This document shows, piece after piece, positions 1,559 to 28,313 of a DNA stretch of 40,147 nucleotides (position 1 is the first letter of the stretch; each line of letters starts with the position of its first letter). The notes under the pieces were generated by a model. The model made no database searches. It saw only the letters and a program-made list of their open reading frames with translations, and was not told the origin of the DNA. Source of the DNA: Verrucomicrobiota bacterium (GTDB taxonomy: Bacteria; Verrucomicrobiota; Verrucomicrobiia; Chthoniobacterales; JAFAMB01); NCBI GenBank assembly GCA_019233825.1, contig JAFAMB010000086.1:1-40147 (forward strand), read 5' to 3'. The position numbers were made by a program, and so were the translations under genes.

Positions 1559-2584
1559 ATGGCAGCAAAAGTCTACACTGATAAGGACGCCGACCTCGCG
1601 AATCTCAACGGAAAAGTCTGTGCAGTGATCGGATTCGGATCACAAGGGCACGCGCATGCCCTCAATCTGAAAGACAGCGGGGTAGAAGTGGTGGTCGGCC
1701 TGTACAAAGGAAGTAAATCTGCCTCGGTTGCCCAGGAACATGGTTTTCCGGTGCTGGATGTCAGCGAGGCGGCACAAAAGGCCGATATCATCTTTTTCGC
1801 AACCCCTGACCTCAAGAGCGCGTCGATTTATGAAACCGAGGTGGCACCCCACCTCAAAAAAGGCAAAGCACTCCTGTTCAGCCATGGTTTTGCGATCCAT
1901 TTCAAGACCATCGTACCGCCAACAGATGTGGACGTGATAATGGTGGCGCCGAAGGGTCCAGGACACATCGTGCGCCGCCAATACCTCGAAGGGAAAGGGG
2001 TGCCGGCGCTTATCGCGGTTTACCAAAACCCGTCCAAACAAGCGAAGAAGCTGGCATTGGCATGGGCGAAGGGAATTGGTGCGACTCGAGCCGGCGTGCT
2101 GGAAACTACATTCAAAGAAGAGACCGAGACGGACCTCTTCGGGGAACAGACTGTGCTTTGCGGCGGTTTAACCTCGCTGGTCCAAAACGGGTTCGAAACT
2201 CTCGTGGAAGCCGGTTACCAGCCGGAGATGGCCTATTTCGAGTGTTTGCACGAGTTGAAATTGATCGTTGACCTTATGTATGAGTCCGGCATTGCAGGCA
2301 TGCGATTCTCCGTCTCCGAGACCGCCAAGTGGGGCGATGTTTCGGTTGGGCCGACGGTGATTGACAGCTCGGTCAAAAGGAAAATGCAGAAGGCCCTCAA
2401 GGATATCCAGAGCGGAAAATTCGCTAAGGGTTGGATCGCCGAATACGCTGCCGGTTTGCCAAAATACAAGAAACTACTGAAGGATGGCGAAAAGCACGCG
2501 ATCGAGAAGACTGGTGAACGTTTGCGCGGACTGATGCCCTGGATACAGAAGAAGAATATCAAGGGCGCGCAGGCTGCTTATTAG
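1559..2584 (+). CDS. ilvC: Ketol-acid reductoisomerase (class I)
   Basis: 341 aa with an ATG start. It has the NADP Rossmann motif [19 protein letters not shown] and conserved [14 protein letters not shown] and [15 protein letters not shown] blocks. Confidence 0.97.
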
Positions 2585-2623
2585 AGCGCCAAGAACTGAA
2601 GAGCTCTTGCCCAGCTGTCCGGA

Positions 2624-2667
2624 CTTCTCGGCGATGCCGGCGTTCTCGGCGTTTAACTTGCGGCGTT
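2624..2667. repeat. One-armed tandem array of TTCTCGGCG-like units between convergent ilvC and a small ORF
   Basis: CTTCTCGGCGATGCCGGCGTTCTCGGCGTTTAACTTGCGGCGTT. It belongs to the same unit family (complement GARAACGCC) as the arrays at 10246-10406 and 28177-28313. No complementary arm was seen nearby. Confidence 0.7.
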
Positions 2668-2866
2668 ACTCAACGTAATGGGTGAGATTTGGGGGTGCCG
2701 TCACTCGTCTGGTTGCGGCTCTCCGCGTGGTCACGAAGTCTTGTAGTTCGGCGGCCAACCGGAACAACCGTTTGCTGCTGAGCTGTTCTTCCGCCCTTTC
2801 GAATTCGGCGTCGTGGATCTGCTGCTCGGAATATTCTTTCGTATTGCTTCTCGTCTCCTCGTTCAT
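2666..2866 (-). CDS. Hypothetical small, highly charged protein (66 aa from the ATG)
   Basis: ORF 2666..2872(-). The track start is GTG at 2872 and an ATG lies at 2866, preceded by GGAGG about 10 nt upstream. It has no TM segment and no motif I recognise. It sits about 200 nt downstream of the DAC-like gene on the same strand. Confidence 0.5.
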   Translation of the reverse strand: MNEETRSNTKEYSEQQIHDAEFERAEEQLSSKRLFRLAAELQDFVTTRRAATRRVTAPPNLTHYVE

Positions 2867-3067
2867 AGTCACTCCGCCTCCGCTCCTTTTGATGACTGCA
2901 CCTCACTAACCCCTGAGAAATCAGCAATGTTTCTGCAGTATTTAAACGACTGTAGAGACAACTAATATTGCAGGTAAATGCGTTTGTAAATTGAGAAGTT
3001 TGATACGCCTTCCCGCGGCTCGGACAGCTGCCGTTGCGTGGTAGGCGCGTCCGGGTAGGGCGAGGCT

Positions 3068-4372
3068 CTAGAAATCCAGGTGATTCCAGTAGGTGACCTT
3101 GTCCTGATAGTTCGCGACGAATTTGACCGCACCATCCTGAGAGACGACGACCGCCAGACATTCCGAGTAATCGCGGCAGAGCCGATACGCCGCACGATGT
3201 CGCGTTCCGGCAGCCTCCATAGACTCAAGGACACAATCCTGCGCTTCGATATCGAGGGCGCGATAAACCATTTCGTCTTCAAAGCTGGGCACCTGAATCT
3301 CAACGCCAAATCCCAGAACGTTGAATTCGTGATCGAGCAGGAGGCAACCGTCGACCGCCGTGAGGTCAGAAAGCCACAGCGCGAGTTCCACAAACCGCTG
3401 ACTGAATGTAAACGGGAACTCGTCAAACCATTCCAGGTACTCCTGCCAACCTACCGACGGTTTTTCCTTAGTCAGTGCAAATTGAACCAGCCGGCGCCGG
3501 ACCTCAGCAAGAATAACAGCAAAGGGGGATGCGGTGCAGGTCTCTTGGATCCGATACTTTGCGCACAAGGGACCGCTCGGCTCCAGGAGTTTCCCCGTGA
3601 GGGTCCGCGGCACGAATACGGCCGTGCCGCCGTGCCGCGAATTCCGAATCTCGCGAATAACTCTCCTCATGAATGCAAAGCCGATTTTCTCGACGAGATC
3701 TTCCCGCACGATCACCGAATCGGGCGGGGTAGCCGAATTTTCGTCTGCAAAACCCGCGCGGATAGTTCGAAAGCGCTCATGTAGCCAGGTGGACCCGCAC
3801 AGATCAAATCCGTGACCTTCGACCCGACCATTCAGCAGGGTAACCAGGCGTTCTGAACCGTTGTTAATCACGAGATTCCCTGGACCCCGGACATGGATGA
3901 TCAGCCAATCGGGGATTGGGTGGTTGATGGAATCGATGGCCGCAGTGAGGTCTCTGGACAGGGCACCGGTGTGGATCATTCCGGAAATTTCGAAACCGCG
4001 TCGGGGGGACCGTTCGACCAGGATCATCGACCGATAAAATCCGGTGGCAGGTCCCAAGCGGCGGATTTCCTGCTCCGCAAATTTTCGGCGCTTCGCTAAG
4101 CGGACGAGATGAAATCCGATCCGGGCGAGGCTCGTGGGCTCAAGATCCTTCGGAGCCGACAATGCGATCCGGCATTCCACGGGCCGGCCCTCTTCGCGGA
4201 GGAGACTTGCCTGGTAGGCGACACTGAGGAAGGAGTGTAAACTCTCGATGGAATCGACGACCGTGTGCGTACCGTCCACCATACCCCAGAGCGACCAGAT
4301 CTGTTCCGCAAGCTCGTGGGGATAGCAATGTGCGTTTAATTCGATGGGTGACACTTCGTAAAGTTTGGCCAA
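3068..4372 (-). CDS. DAC (DisA_N, diadenylate-cyclase-like) domain protein with an uncharacterised N-terminal region; soluble
   Basis: The C-terminal third contains HGGTAVFV, then VDGCLLLD (the DGA-motif position, nt 3344-3352), then GTRHRAA (nt 3188-3208), then AVVVSQDGAVKFV. This is the ordered signature of DAC domains. There are no TM helices and no HhH domain. The start is uncertain: TTG at 4372 (track), GTG at 4354 or ATG at 4282. Confidence 0.7.
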   Translation of the reverse strand: MAKLYEVSPIELNAHCYPHELAEQIWSLWGMVDGTHTVVDSIESLHSFLSVAYQASLLREEGRPVECRIALSAPKDLEPTSLARIGFHLVRLAKRRKFAEQEIRRLGPATGFYRSMILVERSPRRGFEISGMIHTGALSRDLTAAIDSINHPIPDWLIIHVRGPGNLVINNGSERLVTLLNGRVEGHGFDLCGSTWLHERFRTIRAGFADENSATPPDSVIVREDLVEKIGFAFMRRVIREIRNSRHGGTAVFVPRTLTGKLLEPSGPLCAKYRIQETCTASPFAVILAEVRRRLVQFALTKEKPSVGWQEYLEWFDEFPFTFSQRFVELALWLSDLTAVDGCLLLDHEFNVLGFGVEIQVPSFEDEMVYRALDIEAQDCVLESMEAAGTRHRAAYRLCRDYSECLAVVVSQDGAVKFVANYQDKVTYWNHLDF

Positions 4373-4398
4373 ACAGTTGCTGTTTGCATCTCATTTCC

Positions 4399-6261
4399 TC
4401 AGCCCGCCACAATGTGGTCGTGGCTTCGGCTTTGCTGCGATTTTTGCGGGCTGGAGCTAGTGATTAACTCTCGCAACTGCGCAATCCTCCTCTGAAAGAG
4501 ATCCATCGCTTTGTCAATCGGCTCGGGTGATTGCATATCCACCCCAGCGTCCCGGAGAGTTTCAATCGGGAACTTGGCTCCCCCGGATTTGAGGAATCCC
4601 AGGTAGGCCTGCACTTCGGCGGGACCGCCGGTCAGCACTCGGTCCGCGAGCGATATCGCCGCGGAGATTCCGGTCGCATACTTATAGACGTAAAACGCCG
4701 AGTAAAAGTGCGGGATTCTCAGGCACTCGATGCTGAGTTCGTCGTCTACGCTGAATCGCGGACCGAAGTAGGCGTCGAGAAGGTCGCGGTACACGTTTCG
4801 GAACACGTCGAGAGTCAGGGGTCCGCCGTTTTCCTCAATTTCATGCACAAGTTTCTCGAACTCGGCGAACATTGTCTGGCGAAATAGAACCTGCCGGATG
4901 TCCTCGATCTGGCGATCGATGAGGTACGCCCGCATCAAAGACTCCTGAGCACGTTCCAGAAGGTAGTGCGTAAGAAGTTCTTCATTTAATGTTGAAGCCA
5001 CCTCGGCAAGAAAAATCGGATAGCCGTAGTTCTGGAAAAGCTGATGCTGCTGCGCAAACCAGGTATGCATGGAGTGTCCGGACTCGTGGGCAAGGGTGAA
5101 CACATCGGAAAAGACGTCTGGTTTGTAGTTCATCAGAATGAAGGGGGGATTGCCGTAACTGGAGGATGAGAAGGCTCCGCTTCTTTTTCCTTTGGTCTCG
5201 TAGCGGTCGACCCAACGAGAGCGAAGTCCGTTTCTGAGAGTCTCGACGTATTCGGTGCCCAGAGGATGTAGCGCCTGGACGACGATTTCGATTGCTTCAT
5301 CAAAACCGACATTGGTTTGGATCTTAGGGACCAGCGGCACAAACGTGTCATACTGATGGATGTCGGGCAGCTTGAGGACTTCGCGGCGGAGTTCGTAGTA
5401 CTCGTGGAGCACCGGGAGGTTTTTCCGAACAGTGGCAATCAAGTTATCATATACAGCCACCGGGACGTTGTCCTCAAAGAGCGATGCTTCACGCGCGGAC
5501 GGGTAGTTGCGGATCTTGGCGGAGAATACGTCAGCTCGGATTGAGGAAGTCAGCGCGGAGGCCAGGCTATACTTGTGATCACCAAACTCCTGATAGAATT
5601 GGTGAAACGCCCGATGACGCAGATCCCGGTCCTGTCTATGCAGAAAAGAGAGATAAGTGCTCTGAGAGAGCGCGACTTCCTGTCCCTCTTCATTGATTAG
5701 AACGCCAAACTTCATGTCGACATTCGTGAGCTGTGAAAATGTTTCCGAATGACCACGTAGCACCGGCGCACCGAGCGTTAAAAGCCGCTCCTCGGGTTCG
5801 GAGAGGGTGTGTGGCCTGAACCGGCGAAGCTTGCCGAGATAGATCCTCCAGTCGGTCAGCGCCGGGTCATCCAGGAAGCGTTGAAACTTGTCGTCACTGA
5901 TCGCCTGGATCTCCGGATTGATGTACGAAGCGGCCTCATTGACCTTGGTGAGCAGGTTCGTCAATTCCGCGCGGCGAGACAGATTCTCATTGTTCGAACT
6001 GTCTTCAGAGTACTTAAGCGAGGAGTAATGTCCAAGCCGTTCCGCGATTTGATCGAGCCACTTTTCGAGCTCCAGACAATTCAACAATGTCTCAGGGGAT
6101 TCTGCCAGACGGCCCTTGAACTCCGTGATCTTCAGGTAGCAGTTCTTGAGGTCAGCCAATGACTTTCGGTACTCCAGTTCGGTTTTGAAGATGTGGCTGA
6201 GGTCCCAGGTGTCAGCTTCGGGGATCTCGGAGCGGGCCGGAATCTGGCGAGTAGGTGTCAT
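4399..6261 (-). CDS. pepF: Oligoendopeptidase F (M3B metallopeptidase)
   Basis: HESGHSMH zinc motif (HExxH), about 620 aa, and an N-terminal ...EIPEADTWDLSHIF typical of PepF. The track start at 6279 is TTG; the first ATG is at 6261. Confidence 0.93.
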   Translation of the reverse strand: MTPTRQIPARSEIPEADTWDLSHIFKTELEYRKSLADLKNCYLKITEFKGRLAESPETLLNCLELEKWLDQIAERLGHYSSLKYSEDSSNNENLSRRAELTNLLTKVNEAASYINPEIQAISDDKFQRFLDDPALTDWRIYLGKLRRFRPHTLSEPEERLLTLGAPVLRGHSETFSQLTNVDMKFGVLINEEGQEVALSQSTYLSFLHRQDRDLRHRAFHQFYQEFGDHKYSLASALTSSIRADVFSAKIRNYPSAREASLFEDNVPVAVYDNLIATVRKNLPVLHEYYELRREVLKLPDIHQYDTFVPLVPKIQTNVGFDEAIEIVVQALHPLGTEYVETLRNGLRSRWVDRYETKGKRSGAFSSSSYGNPPFILMNYKPDVFSDVFTLAHESGHSMHTWFAQQHQLFQNYGYPIFLAEVASTLNEELLTHYLLERAQESLMRAYLIDRQIEDIRQVLFRQTMFAEFEKLVHEIEENGGPLTLDVFRNVYRDLLDAYFGPRFSVDDELSIECLRIPHFYSAFYVYKYATGISAAISLADRVLTGGPAEVQAYLGFLKSGGAKFPIETLRDAGVDMQSPEPIDKAMDLFQRRIAQLRELITSSSPQKSQQSRSHDHIVAG

Positions 6262-6300
6262 ATCAGGAACGTCAACCAACCTCGGCGAACGTCAAATAGC

Positions 6301-6570
6301 CCGGTAGGGGCGTGCCGGCGAGTCGGCGTGCCGGCGAGTCGGCGTGTCGGCGTATCGGCGAGTCGGCGTGTCGGCGTGTCGGCGTGTCGCCGTATCGCCG
6401 TATCGGCGCACAACCGAAGATCCCGTTTCGGAGCCCTCGCGGATATCCTTTGTGCCGTTCTCCGACCTTCGCTGCCTTCGTGTGGATCTGTTATACGCCG
6501 ACACGCCCATACGCCGACACGCCCATACGCCGACACGCCCATACGCCGACACGCCGACACGCCGATACGC
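6301..6570. repeat. Inverted tandem-octamer array: about 12 TCGGCGTR units (6301-6408), an 84-nt loop, then the complementary ACGCCGAC-type array (6493-6570)
   Basis: Read directly. The left arm starts with CCGGTAGGGG and then runs TCGGCGTG/TCGGCGTA/TCGGCGAG units. The right arm is ATACGCCGACACGCCC x3 followed by ACGCCGAC units. It fills the gap between the xerC stop (6613) and the pepF ATG (6261). Confidence 0.92.
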
Positions 6571-6612
6571 TTTTCCCGCAAAGATCGCGGGCGGGACGCC
6601 CGTGCACGTTGT

Positions 6613-7515
6613 TCAGGCTCGCGGGTGTGCCTGGTCGTATGCCTTTTTCAAACGCTCCATGGTGACGTGGGTATAGATCTGTGTCGTCGAAAGATTCGCG
6701 TGACCGAGTAGTGTCTGTACGCTTCGCAAATCGGCCCCGTTATCCAGGAGGTGCGTAGCAAAACTATGACGCAGTTTGTGTGGACTTACGCGAAGCTGAA
6801 TTGAAGTCTCAGAAACATGCTTCCTTAGCATGAGCCAAATCGATCGCGGGGACATTCGCTTCCTCAACTTGCTGATAAATAGTGGGCCGGATTGGACGCC
6901 CGCTTCAAGCCGATATTGCTGAATGGCTTTCAGCGCCAGCTGTCCCACGGGCACGATTCGTTCCTTCCGACCTTTGCCAATGACGCGGACAGTTTCGCTG
7001 AACGTATCGAGGTCGGCGACATTCAGCGCAGCTAACTCGCTCAATCGAAGCCCGCTGCTGTAGAACAACTCCATCATCGCCGCGTCGCGCGCCGCCGCCC
7101 AGGCGGGAGCCTGAGGCTGGCGCTCGGTCTTCTTGGGCACAGTCAATAGCTCGTCCACCTGCCCGACCGAAAGAACCACCGGAAGTCTCTTTTCCATTTT
7201 GGGCAGTTGCACTTCCCTTAGCGGGTTGTCTCGAAATCCTTCTCGTTCGACGAGGTATTTATAGAAACTGCGGAGTGCTGCAAAAGTGAGTCGAACATAC
7301 GACCTGGCCATGCCCGATTTCATGCAGTCCAGCAAAAAGCCCCGGAATTGTTGCGCCGTATAGCCATTCCAAGACGGTTTGTCGCCGGCGAAGTGCCGGA
7401 ATTTTTCCAAGGCGTGCCGATAAGCGACGACTGTCCTGGGAGAAGCATTGCGTTCGACCTCAAGATACCGAATGTAGCGTTCGAAGAGCCGGTCCTTTTT
7501 TTTCTGATAAGACAT
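6613..7515 (-). CDS. xerC: Tyrosine site-specific recombinase, XerC/XerD type
   Basis: 300 aa with an ATG start. The N-terminal SAM-like domain has RYLEVERNASPRTVVAYRHALEKF. The catalytic region has RKERIVPVG, HKLRHSFATHLLDNGADLRSVQTLLGHANLSTTQIYTHV and ends ...AHPRA. Assigning XerC rather than XerD is tentative. Confidence 0.85.
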   Translation of the reverse strand: MSYQKKKDRLFERYIRYLEVERNASPRTVVAYRHALEKFRHFAGDKPSWNGYTAQQFRGFLLDCMKSGMARSYVRLTFAALRSFYKYLVEREGFRDNPLREVQLPKMEKRLPVVLSVGQVDELLTVPKKTERQPQAPAWAAARDAAMMELFYSSGLRLSELAALNVADLDTFSETVRVIGKGRKERIVPVGQLALKAIQQYRLEAGVQSGPLFISKLRKRMSPRSIWLMLRKHVSETSIQLRVSPHKLRHSFATHLLDNGADLRSVQTLLGHANLSTTQIYTHVTMERLKKAYDQAHPRA

Positions 7516-7532
7516 TCAGGAGGTGCGGAGAT

Positions 7533-7726
7533 GGGAGTTCAGGAGTCAGGAGTTCAGGAGTTCAGGAGCAGGAGTTGCAGGAGTTCAGGAGTTCAGGGGG
7601 ACCGTCGCGAGGAAAAAAAACTGCCGGATAGTTCGAAGCGAATCAAACTCTATGCAGTGCAGGACGGAAAAAAAAAGAGCCACCACCTTGGGCCAGAAGC
7701 GTGTTTTTTCATTCTGCAACTCCTGA
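7533..7726. repeat. Inverted tandem-octamer array: CAGGAGTT units (7533-7597), a roughly 106-nt loop with two A8-9 runs, then the complementary arm CTGCAACTCCTGAACTCCTGACC (7704-7726)
   Basis: Read directly. GTCAGGAGTTCAGGAGTT (7544-7561) is the reverse complement of part of 7704-7726. The left arm ends 18 nt from the xerC ATG. The right arm overlaps the ferritin-like stop codon (7709-7711). Confidence 0.88.
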
Positions 7727-8185
7727 ACTCCTGACCTTCTGATTTCCAGCCAGAAAGCCCAGGAACAGCCGGTGATGTTCTTGTTCCTCGGATAATATGT
7801 CGATCACCATGTCCTGCGTGAGGTAATCGAGTCCGTCTGTCAGGTTGATGATCTTTTGGTACTGAGAGATCGCGACTTCCTCGGTTCTGATGACTCCCTG
7901 GATAACCGCCGTCACATCTTCACTATCCAACGGAGGTTGCAGCAGTTTCTGATCCCGCGGCAGCTCCAGGGAGCCCGGGACGCGACCGCCCAAAACCCTG
8001 ATTCGTTTCGCAAGGCGACGCGCGTGCTTCAGCTTGAGCGCGATCTCTGCTTCGAGCGATTTCTTGACTTTCTCAGCGTTGACTCCGTTCAGATCGATGG
8101 AGTTTGCGAGGTAATTCTGTATCGTCTCCAGCTCTATCGCATAGGATTTTTTTAACTCGGTCACTATTTCTTTCGCCTTATCCAC
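7709..8185 (-). CDS. Ferritin-like (Dps/bacterioferritin superfamily) di-iron protein
   Basis: 158 aa and predicted all-helical. The ligand pattern is E...ExxH...E...ExxH (ELETIQ, EAEIALKLKH, RTEEVAISQ, SEEQEHH). It has a GTG start at 8185 and no nearby ATG. The last residues (RSSGVAE) are read from the repeat arm. Confidence 0.75.
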   Translation of the reverse strand: MDKAKEIVTELKKSYAIELETIQNYLANSIDLNGVNAEKVKKSLEAEIALKLKHARRLAKRIRVLGGRVPGSLELPRDQKLLQPPLDSEDVTAVIQGVIRTEEVAISQYQKIINLTDGLDYLTQDMVIDILSEEQEHHRLFLGFLAGNQKVRSSGVAE

Positions 8186-8236
8186 ACGAAAGGCCCCGAG
8201 ATGCAGTTAGCCGTTGCACCAGTCGGGAGCCGCAGC

Positions 8237-10153
8237 TTAATGCGTCGCCCCCATGGGAATGCCTAAATGCTCCGGCTGCGCGGTAGCGCCAACGTCTCCA
8301 AACCGAGCTGTGTCTCGCCGCAAGACCAGAGTCGCAGATCTGGTTTCGACGCCGTCCGGGGAAACGGCGACGATCGGGACTTCGAACTCGTTGTCTGGGA
8401 ATTTGAAATGGTACCGGAAAGTGCCATCCGGTTGGAGCTGAACGGGTCTGCCGGCGATGGTGACTTTTGCCTGCGGATCTGTGCCGCCATAGAAGATCAC
8501 CTCTGCGTTCACATGCATGAAGAACTTGCGCTCTGGTTGGCTAAAAGGCTGCGCACTCCAGCTGGCTCCGAATCCGCTGAAGAGACTGCTTTCGGAAACC
8601 AACTGGCTCCAACTTGAAAGGCCGAACTCCAAACCGCTCCAGCTTAGATTCCAGGCCGACAATTGCTCGGAGCCGAACGAGAACGAACTGACCGCAAGCG
8701 AACCGAAAGCGGTTTCCCAGCTGGAAGTGATCGCGCCCAGGCCAGCCTGCCAACTCGCGAGGGTTTCGCTGCTGAGGCTGTATGAGCTCAACGCGGTTTC
8801 CCAACTTGAGGTGACCTCGCTGAGACCGGCCTGCCAACTCGCCAGCACTTCACTGCTGAGAGCATACGAACTCAATGCGGATTCCCACTTCGCGAAAATC
8901 TCACTGACGCCAACCTGCCAGCTGGCGAGCGTTTCGCTGCTTAGGCCGTACGAGCTGATCACCTGTGCAAAGCTGCCGGTGACCTCGCTGAGACCGGCCT
9001 GCCAACTCGCCAGCACTTCGCTGCCGAGGCCCAGCGAACTGATGGCCTGTGCAAAGCTGCCGGTGATCTCGCTGAGACCAGCTTGCCAACTTGCCAGGAC
9101 TTCGCTGCTTAGACCGAGCGAGCTTACCGCCTGTTCCCATTTCGAAACGATCTCGCGAACCCCGGCCTGCCAGCTCGCGAGGGTCTCGCTGGCGCCCGCC
9201 AGAACTTCTGACGAGATGCCTCCGACTTCAGAGGATAAGCCGCCAAGTTGTGAGGAAACACCGCCGAGGCTGCTCAGGCTGCTCACCCCGCCCAGGCTGC
9301 TCACGCCACCGCTCGAAAGTTCCTGCCGAAGAAATTCACGGATCGAGCCGCTGAACAAGCTCGATTGTGCCGGCGCCAACAAAGAGGCCAAACGACCTTT
9401 AGCGAGAAGTTCACTCGCAGATTCGGAGTCCAGCTTACCACCGAGTTCGCCATGCAGAAATTCGAGTACTTCCTGCGAGCTCATCGAGAAGAGTCGATCG
9501 AGAAAATCTTTCCCCAACAGCGTTTCTAAAGTCTTAACCTGTTCAGCTCCCCAACTCGATGCACCCCCCGGACCGCTCAGCGCCCGCTGCTGCAACCGCG
9601 CTAAGGCTTCCGTCAAAGGCTGGCCGCCGGCTTGCGCAGCTGAGAGCACCTCGAGAAGAAAATTGAAGCTCAAATGGAATGGTACGGTGGCGAACTGAGT
9701 ATCCCAGTTGAGGCTGACCGATTCAGGAGGCGTGCTGGCCGGTCCGGCCTCGGTCACGCTTGTCCAGGTACCTTTCTCGTCCCGGTGGCCAAAAACAACG
9801 CTGTACGCTGTTCCGGCATATTGAACCGGGATATACCAATTACGCGCAATCTCGTTGATCTCGATTGTCGATTCGAGCTCGTCGTTTCGATAAACCTGGA
9901 GAAACAGTTTGCGCGGCGCGGGAAATTTTGAGTAATCCAAATCCCAATAAGTGAAAAGCCAATGCGGGTCTCGCGCGATGACAAACATCTCGCCATACCC
10001 GGAAGGCAATGCGCCTAAATCCTCAAACTTCAGCTTTTCAGTCGGTCCGCCAAGAGCGTGACCTTCGGATCCTTGTTCCTTGCTTTCTTCTGACAAGATT
10101 GGAGTGGATGCTATTCGAAAACCATTCTGTTTTTCCGCCGATTCTTTGCTCAT
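8237..10153 (-). CDS. DUF4912-like protein with a central 28-aa tandem-repeat region
   Basis: The N-terminal LPSGYGEMFVIARDPHWLFTYWDLD resembles the DUF4912 signature. The C-terminal block is FFMHVNAEVIFYGGTDPQAKVTIAGRPVQLQPDGTFRYHF...IVAVSPDGVETRS. The track start at 10159 is TTG; an ATG lies at 10153. Confidence 0.7.
   Translation of the reverse strand: MSKESAEKQNGFRIASTPILSEESKEQGSEGHALGGPTEKLKFEDLGALPSGYGEMFVIARDPHWLFTYWDLDYSKFPAPRKLFLQVYRNDELESTIEINEIARNWYIPVQYAGTAYSVVFGHRDEKGTWTSVTEAGPASTPPESVSLNWDTQFATVPFHLSFNFLLEVLSAAQAGGQPLTEALARLQQRALSGPGGASSWGAEQVKTLETLLGKDFLDRLFSMSSQEVLEFLHGELGGKLDSESASELLAKGRLASLLAPAQSSLFSGSIREFLRQELSSGGVSSLGGVSSLSSLGGVSSQLGGLSSEVGGISSEVLAGASETLASWQAGVREIVSKWEQAVSSLGLSSEVLASWQAGLSEITGSFAQAISSLGLGSEVLASWQAGLSEVTGSFAQVISSYGLSSETLASWQVGVSEIFAKWESALSSYALSSEVLASWQAGLSEVTSSWETALSSYSLSSETLASWQAGLGAITSSWETAFGSLAVSSFSFGSEQLSAWNLSWSGLEFGLSSWSQLVSESSLFSGFGASWSAQPFSQPERKFFMHVNAEVIFYGGTDPQAKVTIAGRPVQLQPDGTFRYHFKFPDNEFEVPIVAVSPDGVETRSATLVLRRDTARFGDVGATAQPEHLGIPMGATH
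8690..9211 (-). repeat. Six well-conserved in-frame 84-nt (28-aa) tandem repeats inside the DUF4912 gene, with consensus about SSEVLASWQAGLSEVTGSFAQAISSLGL
   Basis: The conserved Trp recurs at residues 330, 358, 386, 414, 442 and 470 (track numbering), exactly 28 aa apart. The flanks (nt 8546-9319 overall) are degenerate S/G/L-rich micro-repeats. Confidence 0.9.
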
Positions 10154-10245
10154 TTTCAAAACCCTCAGACTTTCCAGGGGCCTCGCAACCGCCTATGGTG
10201 GGCGAATTCTGACGAAATGCAAATGGTATTTGAGGGTCAGTGCAA

Positions 10246-10406
10246 GTGAAAACGCCGAGAGCGCCGAAAACGCGCGAGAACGCCGAAAACCTAGGGGAAC
10301 GGTTGAATGGCAGGCGCCAAATAATTAATGGCTAAGAGTAACAGCTCTGTGCTTTTTGTTTGGCATTGCCGGCCCCTTGCGTTCTCGGCGCTCTCGGCGT
10401 TTTCAC
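10246..10406. repeat. Inverted tandem 9-mer array: GARAACGCC units (10246-10291), a roughly 85-nt loop, and the complementary arm (10376-10406)
   Basis: GTGAAAACGCCGAGAGCGCCGAAAACGC matches the reverse complement of 10379-10406 at 27 of 28 positions. It lies between the stop of the 10421 gene and the start of the DUF4912 gene. Confidence 0.9.
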
Positions 10407-27298: not shown

Positions 27299-28195
27299 AT
27301 GTCTTGTTCAAAGATAGATCCGTCGTTGCACCAGGCTAAGAAGCCCGAGTGGATCAAGGTCCGGCTGCCTTCGAGTCCCATTTTTTTTTCCACCAAAGCG
27401 CTGATCTCGGATCTGCGGCTACACACCGTTTGCGAGTCTGCCCAGTGTCCGAATCGATGGGAGTGCTGGAGCCAGGGTACCGCTACGTTCATGATAGCCG
27501 GTGAGCGATGTACCCGGGCGTGTGGTTTTTGTGCGGTCTCCACCGCTAAGCCTTTTGCCTTGGAAGTGGATGAACCAGCACGGGTAGCCGAAGCGATCCG
27601 CCGAATGAGGTTGAAGCACGTCGTAATCACGGCGGTCGCACGCGACGATCTGGCAGACGGGGGAGCGAATCACTTTGCAGAAACTATTCGTGCGATCAGG
27701 GAAATTGATCCCGAAATTGTGATCGAAGTTCTGACTCCGGATTTTAATGGGAGAGAATACTCTCTCCGGCTCGTCTTGGAGGCGCGGCCTGACATATTTA
27801 ATCATAACTTGGAAACCGTGGAGCGCCTGACACCTGTCGTACGGTCTCGAGCAAAGTATCGGCGATCCCTGGACGTGCTACGACAAGCGAAGCAGCTGGA
27901 TCCTGGCGTAGTGACGAAAAGCGGAATGATGCTTGGGCTAGGGGAGACAAAGGCGGAACTATGTCAGGCGATGGATGATTTGCGCGAGGCGGATGCGCAG
28001 GTTTTGACGCTTGGTCAATATTTGAGGCCGACTCCGCATCATCTGCCTGTGCTCGAGTACATCCGACCGGAGGTGTTCGAGCTCTATAAAGAGATCGCGG
28101 AGCAAAAGGGGTTTGAGTATGTAGCTTCCGGGCCGCTGGTTAGAAGCTCTTATCACGCCGCTGATTATCATCCGAGCCGAAAACGCCGGGAGTGA
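27299..28195 (+). CDS. lipA: Lipoyl synthase (radical SAM)
   Basis: It has the CESAQCPN.WEC auxiliary cluster motif and the radical-SAM motif CTRACGFCAV. I prefer the ATG at 27299 (the track ORF starts at 27260). The final residues RKRRE are read from the repeat arm. Confidence 0.95.
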   Translation: MSCSKIDPSLHQAKKPEWIKVRLPSSPIFFSTKALISDLRLHTVCESAQCPNRWECWSQGTATFMIAGERCTRACGFCAVSTAKPFALEVDEPARVAEAIRRMRLKHVVITAVARDDLADGGANHFAETIRAIREIDPEIVIEVLTPDFNGREYSLRLVLEARPDIFNHNLETVERLTPVVRSRAKYRRSLDVLRQAKQLDPGVVTKSGMMLGLGETKAELCQAMDDLREADAQVLTLGQYLRPTPHHLPVLEYIRPEVFELYKEIAEQKGFEYVASGPLVRSSYHAADYHPSRKRRE

Positions 28196-28313
28196 AAACG
28201 CCGGGAGCCCCGGAAACGCCGAGAACGATAGGAGCGCTCTGAAAAGCCCGACCACAGGCGCCTCAGCGATCCGGGCGTTCTCGGCGTTTCCGGGCGTTTT
28301 CGGCGTTCTCCCC
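28177..28313. repeat. Inverted tandem 9-mer array of the GARAACGCC family: left arm 28177-28227, right arm 28271-28313
   Basis: CCGGAAACGCCGAGAACG (28210-28227) is the reverse complement of part of the right arm CCGGGCGTTCTCGGCGTTTCCGGGCGTTTTCGGCGTTCTCCCC. It spans the whole gap between convergent lipA and the 28315 gene. Confidence 0.9.

Follow-up and report, generated by a model that had tools for sequence, protein, structure and literature searches.

Between the conserved genes pepF and ilvC, in a 40,147-nucleotide stretch of Verrucomicrobiota DNA from the order Chthoniobacterales (GenBank assembly GCA_019233825.1, contig JAFAMB010000086.1, positions 1 to 40,147; hereafter the window), lies a reverse-strand gene whose product carries the motifs of a diadenylate cyclase (DAC) domain, the fold that makes cyclic di-AMP (c-di-AMP). 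A first-pass annotation had read this protein as an orphan soluble cyclase with an unassigned N-terminal region, paired with an adjacent 66-aa open reading frame (ORF) and perhaps acting in signalling or conflict. Is the gene a new module of this kind, or an ordinary enzyme of its lineage? By sequence, the cyclase is a typical member of the known DACNV-DAC family, identical in domain order, length, lack of transmembrane segments and motif set. We consider it probable, if well short of certain, that it is a cytosolic DACNV-DAC diadenylate cyclase of about 428 aa that makes, most likely, 3'3'-c-di-AMP in ordinary Chthoniobacterales-type signalling and is unpaired with the 66-aa ORF.

The protein matched PF21751 ('Probable sensor domain DACNV') over residues 42-134 at 74.8 bits, against a cutoff of 27, and is a soluble protein in the range of about 400-450 aa in which DACNV is followed by a C-terminal DAC domain. 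The region that the first-pass annotation left unassigned is thus a domain that it had itself named as an example. Its relatives share the layout. A protein database held 493 of them, mostly of 425-431 aa and most with both PF21751 and PF02457 (the Pfam DAC family), several labelled Verrucomicrobia; most close homologues bear a precomputed PF02457 match. At E<=1e-30 an exhaustive profile search of 1.84 billion cluster representatives returned 203 clusters (at 50% identity), a number that rose to 1193 at E<=1e-10; full-length proteins of 400-450 aa gave the best matches. Among 43 distant representatives (22-54% identity), DACNV was found in all 43, DAC in 40 and other domains in none, and DACNV was fused to no other output domain either in these or in matches of atypical length. 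The latter were rejected as new architectures, their Arg-rich C-termini looking like frameshift products. An NCBIfam scan of the cyclase and the small protein gave nothing useful. Because DACNV can be assigned and the layout is common to a sizeable, uniform family (more than 200 clusters at 50% identity), the cyclase is not an orphan.

This family is already catalogued in Pfam and appears to be experimentally uncharacterised; in the literature searched we found no paper mentioning DACNV, in line with the annotation's remark that no characterisation was known. The naming and history of DACNV given here follow secondary citation. The attribution of such domains to Burroughs, Aravind and colleagues, offered in the first-pass annotation, looks wrong: recent preprints name Galperin 2023 as the source of the DACN* domains and of a classification into 22 DAC families. 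DACNV-DAC is one of these 22, as cited in bioRxiv 10.64898/2026.08.10.743972; its family letter would follow by analogy with CdaG, which is DACNG+DACNH+DAC. Earlier surveys list Verrucomicrobia-specific (DacD) and Planctomycetes (DacZ-like) DAC classes.

Recomputation placed the ORF and its four motifs exactly where the first-pass annotation had them, and the parts of the gene are as follows (residues in 434-aa numbering).

3068..4372 (-): DACNV-DAC protein gene from the ORF list, 434 aa from TTG 4372, stop codon 3068-3070
3971..4249 (-): Pfam DACNV match, residues 42-134, PF21751 E 6.5e-21
3812..3970 (-): N-terminal module past the Pfam boundary, residues 135-187, a helix and four-strand beta-meander with conserved PxWLIIHVRGPGNLV...NGRxEGH
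3701..3811 (-): variable, low-confidence linker, residues 188-224, unconserved columns, predicted local distance difference test (pLDDT) <50 at 188-214 in the full-length model
3071..3700 (-): divergent DAC (DisA_N-like) catalytic domain, residues 225-434, from Foldseek and hhalign
Residues 247-254: HGGTAVFV motif, recomputed
Residues 340-347: VDGCLLLD motif, DGC codons at nt 3344-3352 (-)
3344..3352 (-): DGC motif D341 G342 C343, equivalent by hhalign to the DGA motif D171-G172-A173 of Listeria monocytogenes CdaA (LmCdaA)
3209..3343 (-): extended 'lid', residues 344-388, reaching from DGx to GTRHR and exceeding its CdaA counterpart by 18 residues
3188-3208 (-): GTRHRAA motif, residues 389-395 (G389-A395), equivalent to LmCdaA G201-R205
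Residues 407-419: AVVVSQDGAVKFV motif, recomputed
3134..3142 (-): S411-Q412-D413 of VSQDG, equivalent by hhalign to LmCdaA S222-E223-E224

Nearly all homologues are 428 aa long and begin at the position of an in-frame GTG at 4354, a start also observed in locus L001 and in the homologue alignment; the true product is therefore probably the 428-aa protein. The largest Kyte-Doolittle mean over 19 residues in the 434-aa protein was 1.46, so that, as the annotation had held, the cyclase has no transmembrane helix.

The N-terminal module was modelled separately with AlphaFold2 (residues 1-235, 62-sequence alignment, pLDDT 83). Mean pLDDT per 10-residue block was 91-98 over residues 41-130 and 87-96 over residues 151-180, and the beta-meander strands fell at 157-163, 166-171, 174-180 and 183-185, bearing an invariant WLIIHVRGPGNLV...NGRxEGH block. 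The ordered, conserved part thus reaches about residue 185, well past the 98-residue Pfam model. In these models the N-terminal half is an alpha/beta module of about 185 residues, comprising the Pfam DACNV domain and a conserved beta-meander, that is joined to the DAC domain by the variable linker. Foldseek searches of the PDB (best E 0.94, prob 0.04) and of BFVD (best E 0.43) found no relative of the module, and neither PAS, GAF nor any other solved fold was recognisable. A degenerate duplication of the DAC domain found no support either: hhalign of the N- against the C-terminal profile gave a probability of 0.2%. The sole pairing in that alignment, residues 151-169 with 401-419 (nt 3866-3922 and 3116-3172; HPIPDWLIIHVRGPGNLVI and RDYSECLAVVVSQDGAVKF, with IIHVRGPGNLV opposite VVVSQDGAVKF), joins two stretches that each form a beta-hairpin with a central Gly turn; it is non-significant, and recalls the dead-copy proposal made for DACNH.

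The C-terminal half of the protein is, in the predicted structure, a DAC alpha/beta fold. We built a full-length AlphaFold2 model from a 20-sequence alignment (pLDDT 76, predicted template-modelling score (pTM) 0.80) and compared it with the PDB by Foldseek, as the first-pass annotation had proposed. The top 50 matches were all DisA, CdaA, DacA, DacM or CdaM (prob 0.96-1.00, E 3e-3 to 0.12), led by the DisA entries 3c1y and 9y4s (E 3.2e-3, prob 1.00), with target-normalised template-modelling scores of 0.52-0.64 on CdaA-type catalytic-domain chains. Relative to CdaA, the domain has an insertion of about 50 aa after beta1 (residues ~255-305), and the protein ends 14 residues past the last strand.

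Alignment of the family's C-terminal profile with LmCdaA (residues 100-255, a sequence 100% identical to that in PDB 6hvl/4rv7) by hhalign gave a probability of 89% and E 2.3e-6, with DGx, GTRHR and VSxxG in register: D341-G342-C343 matched D171-G172-A173, G389-T390-R391-H392-R393 matched G201-R205, and S411-Q412-D413 matched S222-E223-E224. The equivalent residues in the CdaA structures reportedly bind ATP phosphates and metal (Rosenberg 2015; Heidemann 2019). D341, G342, G389, R391, H392, S411 and D413 were invariant in the 43-sequence alignment, and D, G, G-T-R-H-R and S-Q-D across the homologues, in both cases down to 22% identity; judged on sequence, the motif set is far beyond chance. 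According to a 2026 preprint, exactly D, G, G and R show full conservation in the whole curated set of bacterial DACs, and all are present here, as D341, G342, G389 and R391 (LmCdaA D171, G172, G201 and R203). At the level of sequence, then, the DAC domain keeps every universally conserved catalytic residue. Foldseek, hhalign and the invariant residues together bear out the annotation's picture of a soluble protein with a DAC-fold catalytic half behind a non-catalytic N-terminal module.

Two peculiarities of the active-site region had also been read correctly from the letters. D341 and G389 lie 48 residues apart, as against 30 in LmCdaA, through two insertions (8 and 10 aa) that add 18 residues between DGx and GTRHR; AlphaFold2 places an extra beta-hairpin in this lid at residues 368-384 (pLDDT about 62-64). 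The spacing is constant at 47-48 in every subgroup, which makes it a family trait. The other is Cys343, which aligns with A173 of LmCdaA and replaces the Ala of DGA. Ala holds this position in 90% or more of the wider family, whose consensus is the canonical VDGA, and Cys is confined to groups 1 and 2 of Chthoniobacterales. Canonical DGA is kept by the paralogous group 3 and by the Rhodopirellula group, with DGS at a single locus. The active PanS enzymes carry Phe as the third residue (DGF; 2026 preprint), so that Cys343 is compatible with activity.

We infer activity, product, dimerisation and N-terminal sensing along the following lines. Two DAC domains would meet head-to-head in the manner of DisA and CdaA, one ATP being bound by each through GTRHR and S411, with D341 and D413 holding a Mn2+/Mg2+ ion. 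Formation of two phosphodiester bonds would then yield, most likely, 3'3'-c-di-AMP. The N-terminal module may pack on the DAC domain and gate productive pairing upon an intracellular ligand or protein.

In its genomic setting the cyclase is a regular chromosomal gene of soil Verrucomicrobia, passed on by vertical inheritance, and we found no defence context. Two genes flank the locus and serve as context only.

4399..6279 (-): pepF (oligoendopeptidase F, M3), upstream on the same strand, Pfam Peptidase_M3 and M3_N
1559..2584 (+): ilvC (ketol-acid reductoisomerase), downstream and convergent, Pfam KARI_N and KARI_C

The pepF stop (4399) lies 26 nt upstream of the cyclase TTG, as first annotated, and the GC content of the cyclase gene is like that of its surroundings. 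A genome scan found DACNV-DAC genes at 56 loci, in Chthoniobacterales, other Verrucomicrobiota (including Luteolibacter and Akkermansiaceae), Planctomycetota and one Polyangiaceae metagenome-assembled genome (MAG). Cultured Planctomycetota carriers are Rhodopirellula sallentina, R. europaea, Rhodopirellula sp. SWK7, Aporhodopirellula rubra and A. aestuarii, and MAG carriers in the same phylum belong to Pirellulaceae, Bythopirellula and Planctomycetaceae. Clustering of the four genes on either side at 52 of the 56 loci revealed no neighbour conserved family-wide: the census that the annotation had proposed found neither the small ORF nor pepF to be such a partner. The order Dps - xerC-like - pepF - cyclase - ilvC - ilvN, and with it pepF at position -1, occurs solely among orthologues sharing 64% identity or more (14 loci), and neighbours in other subgroups are unrelated (low-molecular-weight phosphatase, aldo-keto reductase, PDZ proteases, GcvP, bestrophin-like protein, HlyD). 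The aldo-keto reductase adjoins the cyclase both in a Chthoniobacterales group at 53% identity (L005 9473-10423, L006 4466-5416) and in Rhodopirellula (L052-L054 and L061, at position +1); the strand differs between these two distant subgroups, so the adjacency is possibly coincidence.

Beyond this locus the window consists of core chromosome (lexA, lipopolysaccharide glycosyltransferases, mdoG, LysR, rpoD, dnaG, uvrC, exbB). It held no second DAC gene in its 40,147 nt and no Rfam match, for instance to a c-di-AMP riboswitch, and a promoter and terminator scan of 2400-6700 gave nothing above shuffle expectation. No viral relatives of the cyclase were found in IMG/VR, and neither the cyclase nor the small protein matched PADLOC. 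These results, with the core-chromosome context and the lack of a family-wide partner, speak against the conflict role that the first-pass annotation had raised. The cyclase is probably one of its lineage's native cyclases rather than a phage-defence module, and the annotation's own caveat, that it might simply be the lineage-typical enzyme, is plausibly the right description.

Seven Chthoniobacterales MAGs carry 2-3 paralogues, typically one of the DGC type (groups 1/2) and one of the DGA type (group 3), the latter about 40% identical to the window protein.

Paralogue loci: L024/L042/L043 (JBAUZZ01), L026/L041 (CAWDQF01), L025/L039 (DASTDH01), L027/L062 (DATNNZ01)
Paralogue loci: L031/L045 (CAVXLD01), L036/L044 (JAFAHI01), L022/L047 (DASZHC01)

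At locus L046 of MAG CAVVII01 (6001-7298), the cyclase is split into three overlapping ORFs of 133, 224 and 147 aa, and fragmentation affects the downstream ilvC as well; long-read frameshift errors are probably responsible, rather than pseudogenes.

Downstream of the cyclase lies the small ORF that the first-pass annotation had treated as its partner.

2666..2866 (-): small protein gene, 66 aa from ATG 2866 (68 aa from GTG 2872), lineage-restricted
2961..2990 (-): conserved 30-nt block TTTACAAACGCATTTACCTGCAATATTAGT upstream of the small ORF, putatively promoter-like
2933-2942 / 2964-2973: imperfect inverted repeat CTGCAGTATT / AATATTGCAG, 9/10 complementary
L007 5001-5198; L008 257-454; L011 9887-10084: homologues of the small ORF

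The ORF has the good ribosome-binding site first ascribed to it (GGAGG at 2877-2881, 10 nt upstream of ATG 2866) and, on sequence evidence, is a real gene restricted to a narrow lineage. Its homologues form 11 clusters of 65 aa with an invariant LSSK.LFR.AAELQ...LTHYVE; the N-terminal half is variable and acidic, the C-terminal half invariant, basic/amphipathic and terminated by LTHYVE. Across the compared loci, indels are in-frame only, and variable sites in the C-terminal half fall 12/6/23 by codon position. The small protein matched nothing in Pfam, NCBIfam or PADLOC and has no hydrophobic segment (maximum hydropathy 0.12).

Its distribution does not follow that of the cyclase. In the window, L001, L003, L007 and L046 the small ORF immediately follows the cyclase on the same strand, and in L046 (7540-7737) it is intact despite the fragmented cyclase. 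The genome census found it at only 3-4 of about 17 orthologue loci and at none in the paralogue or Planctomycetota groups; it is absent even from same-synteny orthologues of 71-73% identity such as L002 and L004; in L004 the cyclase stop lies 8 nt from ilvC. It always adjoins the 3' end of ilvC. In L011 a 648-aa gene on the opposite strand parts it from the cyclase, and it still sits beside ilvC; this inserted ORF lies at 7621-9567 (-) (L011, DASXBV01). The small ORF is not a functional partner of the cyclase, and the two are not the pair first described.

The gap between the cyclase stop and the small ORF is, as the annotation had noted, about 200 bp and AT-richer (201 nt, GC 0.51, against 0.54-0.57 in the flanking genes). 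Within it the block at 2961-2990 is near-identical in the window, L001 and L003 while the flanks diverge; a strict sigma-70 scan made no call at this block. The inverted repeat to which attention had been drawn is there in the sequence, at 9 of 10 positions. We judged it a chance pairing, about one such pair being expected in the gap by our estimate; conservation of the distal arm is lacking in L001 and L003, the closest two loci, and a repeat finder did not report 2933-2973.

Elsewhere, the window carries intergenic tandem arrays of short period (8-9 nt and 15-19 nt) at 31-91, 6309-6408, 6495-6570, 7515-7597, 10248-10290 and 28179-28307, which give rise to spurious 'RRVGVSA' repeat ORFs. Between pepF and the xerC-like gene, (GGCGTGTC)x12.5 at 6309-6408 faces an oppositely oriented, near-complementary octamer array, (ACGCCGAC)x9.5 at 6495-6570, with a related array at the window start; an (GGAGTTCA)n array lies between xerC and dps. 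At 8237-10159 (-) lies a 640-aa ORF whose syntenic counterpart in L004 is a DUF4912 protein; within it, at 8709-9178, an 84-nt (28-aa) unit of the type LSSEVLASWQAGLSEVTxSW is repeated in tandem about 4-5 times.

Several observations weigh against the c-di-AMP signalling enzyme that we favour. The window protein scored 23.9 bits with the Pfam DAC model, below the cutoff of 27, over residues 374-420 and only positions 64-115 of the 119 in the profile; of the profiles that the first-pass annotation had suggested checking, the sensor thus cleared its threshold and PF02457 did not. Across the scanned sets the best DAC E-value was 4.4e-7 and scores were 23.5-26.7 bits, all just below the cutoff. 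PDB sequence searches, by phmmer and by profile, were non-significant, with DAC matches at E ~0.05 over GTRHR..VVS, so the assignment of the catalytic domain comes from predicted fold and profile alignment. Matches to Rap1b in those searches were spurious. The sensor role of the N-terminal module is argued purely from its position and from other DAC families, and the module has no structural relative by Foldseek and is never fused to another output in the scanned homologues. DAC genes are generally low-copy, so 2-3 paralogues per genome are atypical for housekeeping enzymes. We found no enzymatic data for any DACNV protein in the literature searched.

The divergence of the domain could mean that it is degenerate, a pseudo-enzyme that binds nucleotide or serves a structural or regulatory role. 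The sub-threshold, partial Pfam match, the change of DGA to DGC and the large catalytic-domain insertions would fit this, as would the description of DACNH, a related N-terminal domain, as a catalytically dead DAC relative in preprints. Against these, the core D, G, G, T, R, H, R, S and D is invariant among sequences of 22-54% overall identity, as a maintained active site would predict; moreover, the wider-family consensus is VDGA and DGF variants are active in PanS. We therefore hold degeneracy to be very unlikely. A separate alternative keeps the enzyme active and changes its product: through the longer lid, DACNV-DAC proteins would make a non-canonical signal (3'3'-cUA, or a linear or oligomeric product), maybe in a conflict or decoy-type pathway with its effector encoded elsewhere. 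In the minimal DAC PanS it is a longer, flexible lid at the corresponding place that switches the product to 3'3'-cUA (2026 preprint), and with this precedent the 18 extra residues mean that c-di-AMP is not assured here. The 47-48 spacing in all subgroups (30 in LmCdaA), the Cys of this clade and the occurrence of DACNG-DACNH-DAC proteins in CBASS-like operons point the same way. The extra lid is not clearly a flexible loop like that of PanS, however, because it is predicted as a beta-hairpin of moderate pLDDT. No effector-like or defence gene is conserved beside any subgroup, PADLOC and viral matches are lacking, synteny is that of a stable core chromosome with native GC, and c-di-AMP is still the product of DS-2C enzymes, whose N-terminal modules are large. 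A non-canonical product accordingly seems unlikely to us, less so than degeneracy. The third alternative unites cyclase and 66-aa ORF in one functional module of two genes, in which the small protein would serve as regulator, receptor or antitoxin-like partner. It draws on the small ORF being a genuine conserved gene (invariant C-terminal half, excess of third-position substitutions) and lying directly downstream on the same strand at five loci. It is largely refuted by distribution: the small ORF occurs in only 11 protein clusters of one narrow lineage, is missing from same-synteny orthologues, has its own conserved promoter-like block, is set off by a 200-nt gap and stays with ilvC in L011 when separated from the cyclase. 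We give this arrangement slightly less credence still than a degenerate domain.

c-di-AMP biology rests almost entirely on the Gram-positive enzymes CdaA, DisA and CdaS, and we know of nothing on c-di-AMP in Chthoniobacterales, a group that includes abundant soil Verrucomicrobia, or in Planctomycetota. To the catalogued family the present analysis adds testable features: an N-terminal module that exceeds the Pfam domain and matches no solved structure, the DGx-RHR spacing of 47-48, the clade-specific Cys and 2-3 paralogues per genome. Given the PanS precedent, the constancy of that spacing raises the question of product identity, and the cultured Rhodopirellula and Aporhodopirellula homologues offer an experimental entry point. 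A more speculative combination, to which we assign a low probability, is that the lid extension redirects the product and that a sensor of new fold and DGC/DGA paralogues, the Cys possibly being redox-sensitive, make up a multi-input network; if true, such a DAC network would parallel those of GGDEF proteins and have no precedent among DAC enzymes.

How does the window protein compare with known systems? From other DACNV-DAC proteins it differs only in the clade-specific Cys343 (groups 1 and 2) and in a DAC score just below the cutoff. It resembles CdaG/DS-2C and PanS in being a soluble DAC with non-canonical features. CdaG/DS-2C is a DACNG-DACNH-DAC protein with large, uncharacterised N-terminal 'sensor' modules, found in CBASS-like DS-2 operons; the window protein matched neither DACNG nor DACNH in Pfam at E<=1, and no CD-NTase or 2TM-beta effector appeared in the neighbour census. 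With PanS (Panoptoo/PanDA) it shares an extended lid and a third DGx residue other than Ala, but PanS is a DAC-only protein of ~150 aa in a two-gene operon with an S2TM-beta effector, whereas the window protein has 428-434 aa, a large N-terminal module and no transmembrane or beta-barrel partner. The CdaS model NF038328 of NCBIfam (N-terminal autoinhibitory helices and DAC, ~200 aa) scored 12.8 bits against a cutoff of 225. DisA provided the best Foldseek matches to the DAC domain; its DAC domain is N-terminal, however, and followed by a helical linker and a helix-hairpin-helix DNA-binding domain, whereas here DAC is C-terminal and no Pfam match to helix-hairpin-helix was found in the protein. 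From CdaA/DacA, the membrane-anchored housekeeping enzymes (PDB 4rv7/6hvl), it differs in lacking three N-terminal transmembrane helices and cdaR/glmM neighbours (with pepF, the small ORF and ilvC in their place), in the ~50-aa insertion after beta1 and the 18 extra DGx-RHR residues, and in its marginal sequence similarity. The DAC fold and the aligned catalytic core are nevertheless alike and, by analogy, CdaA-like chemistry, converting two ATP to c-di-AMP, is likely.

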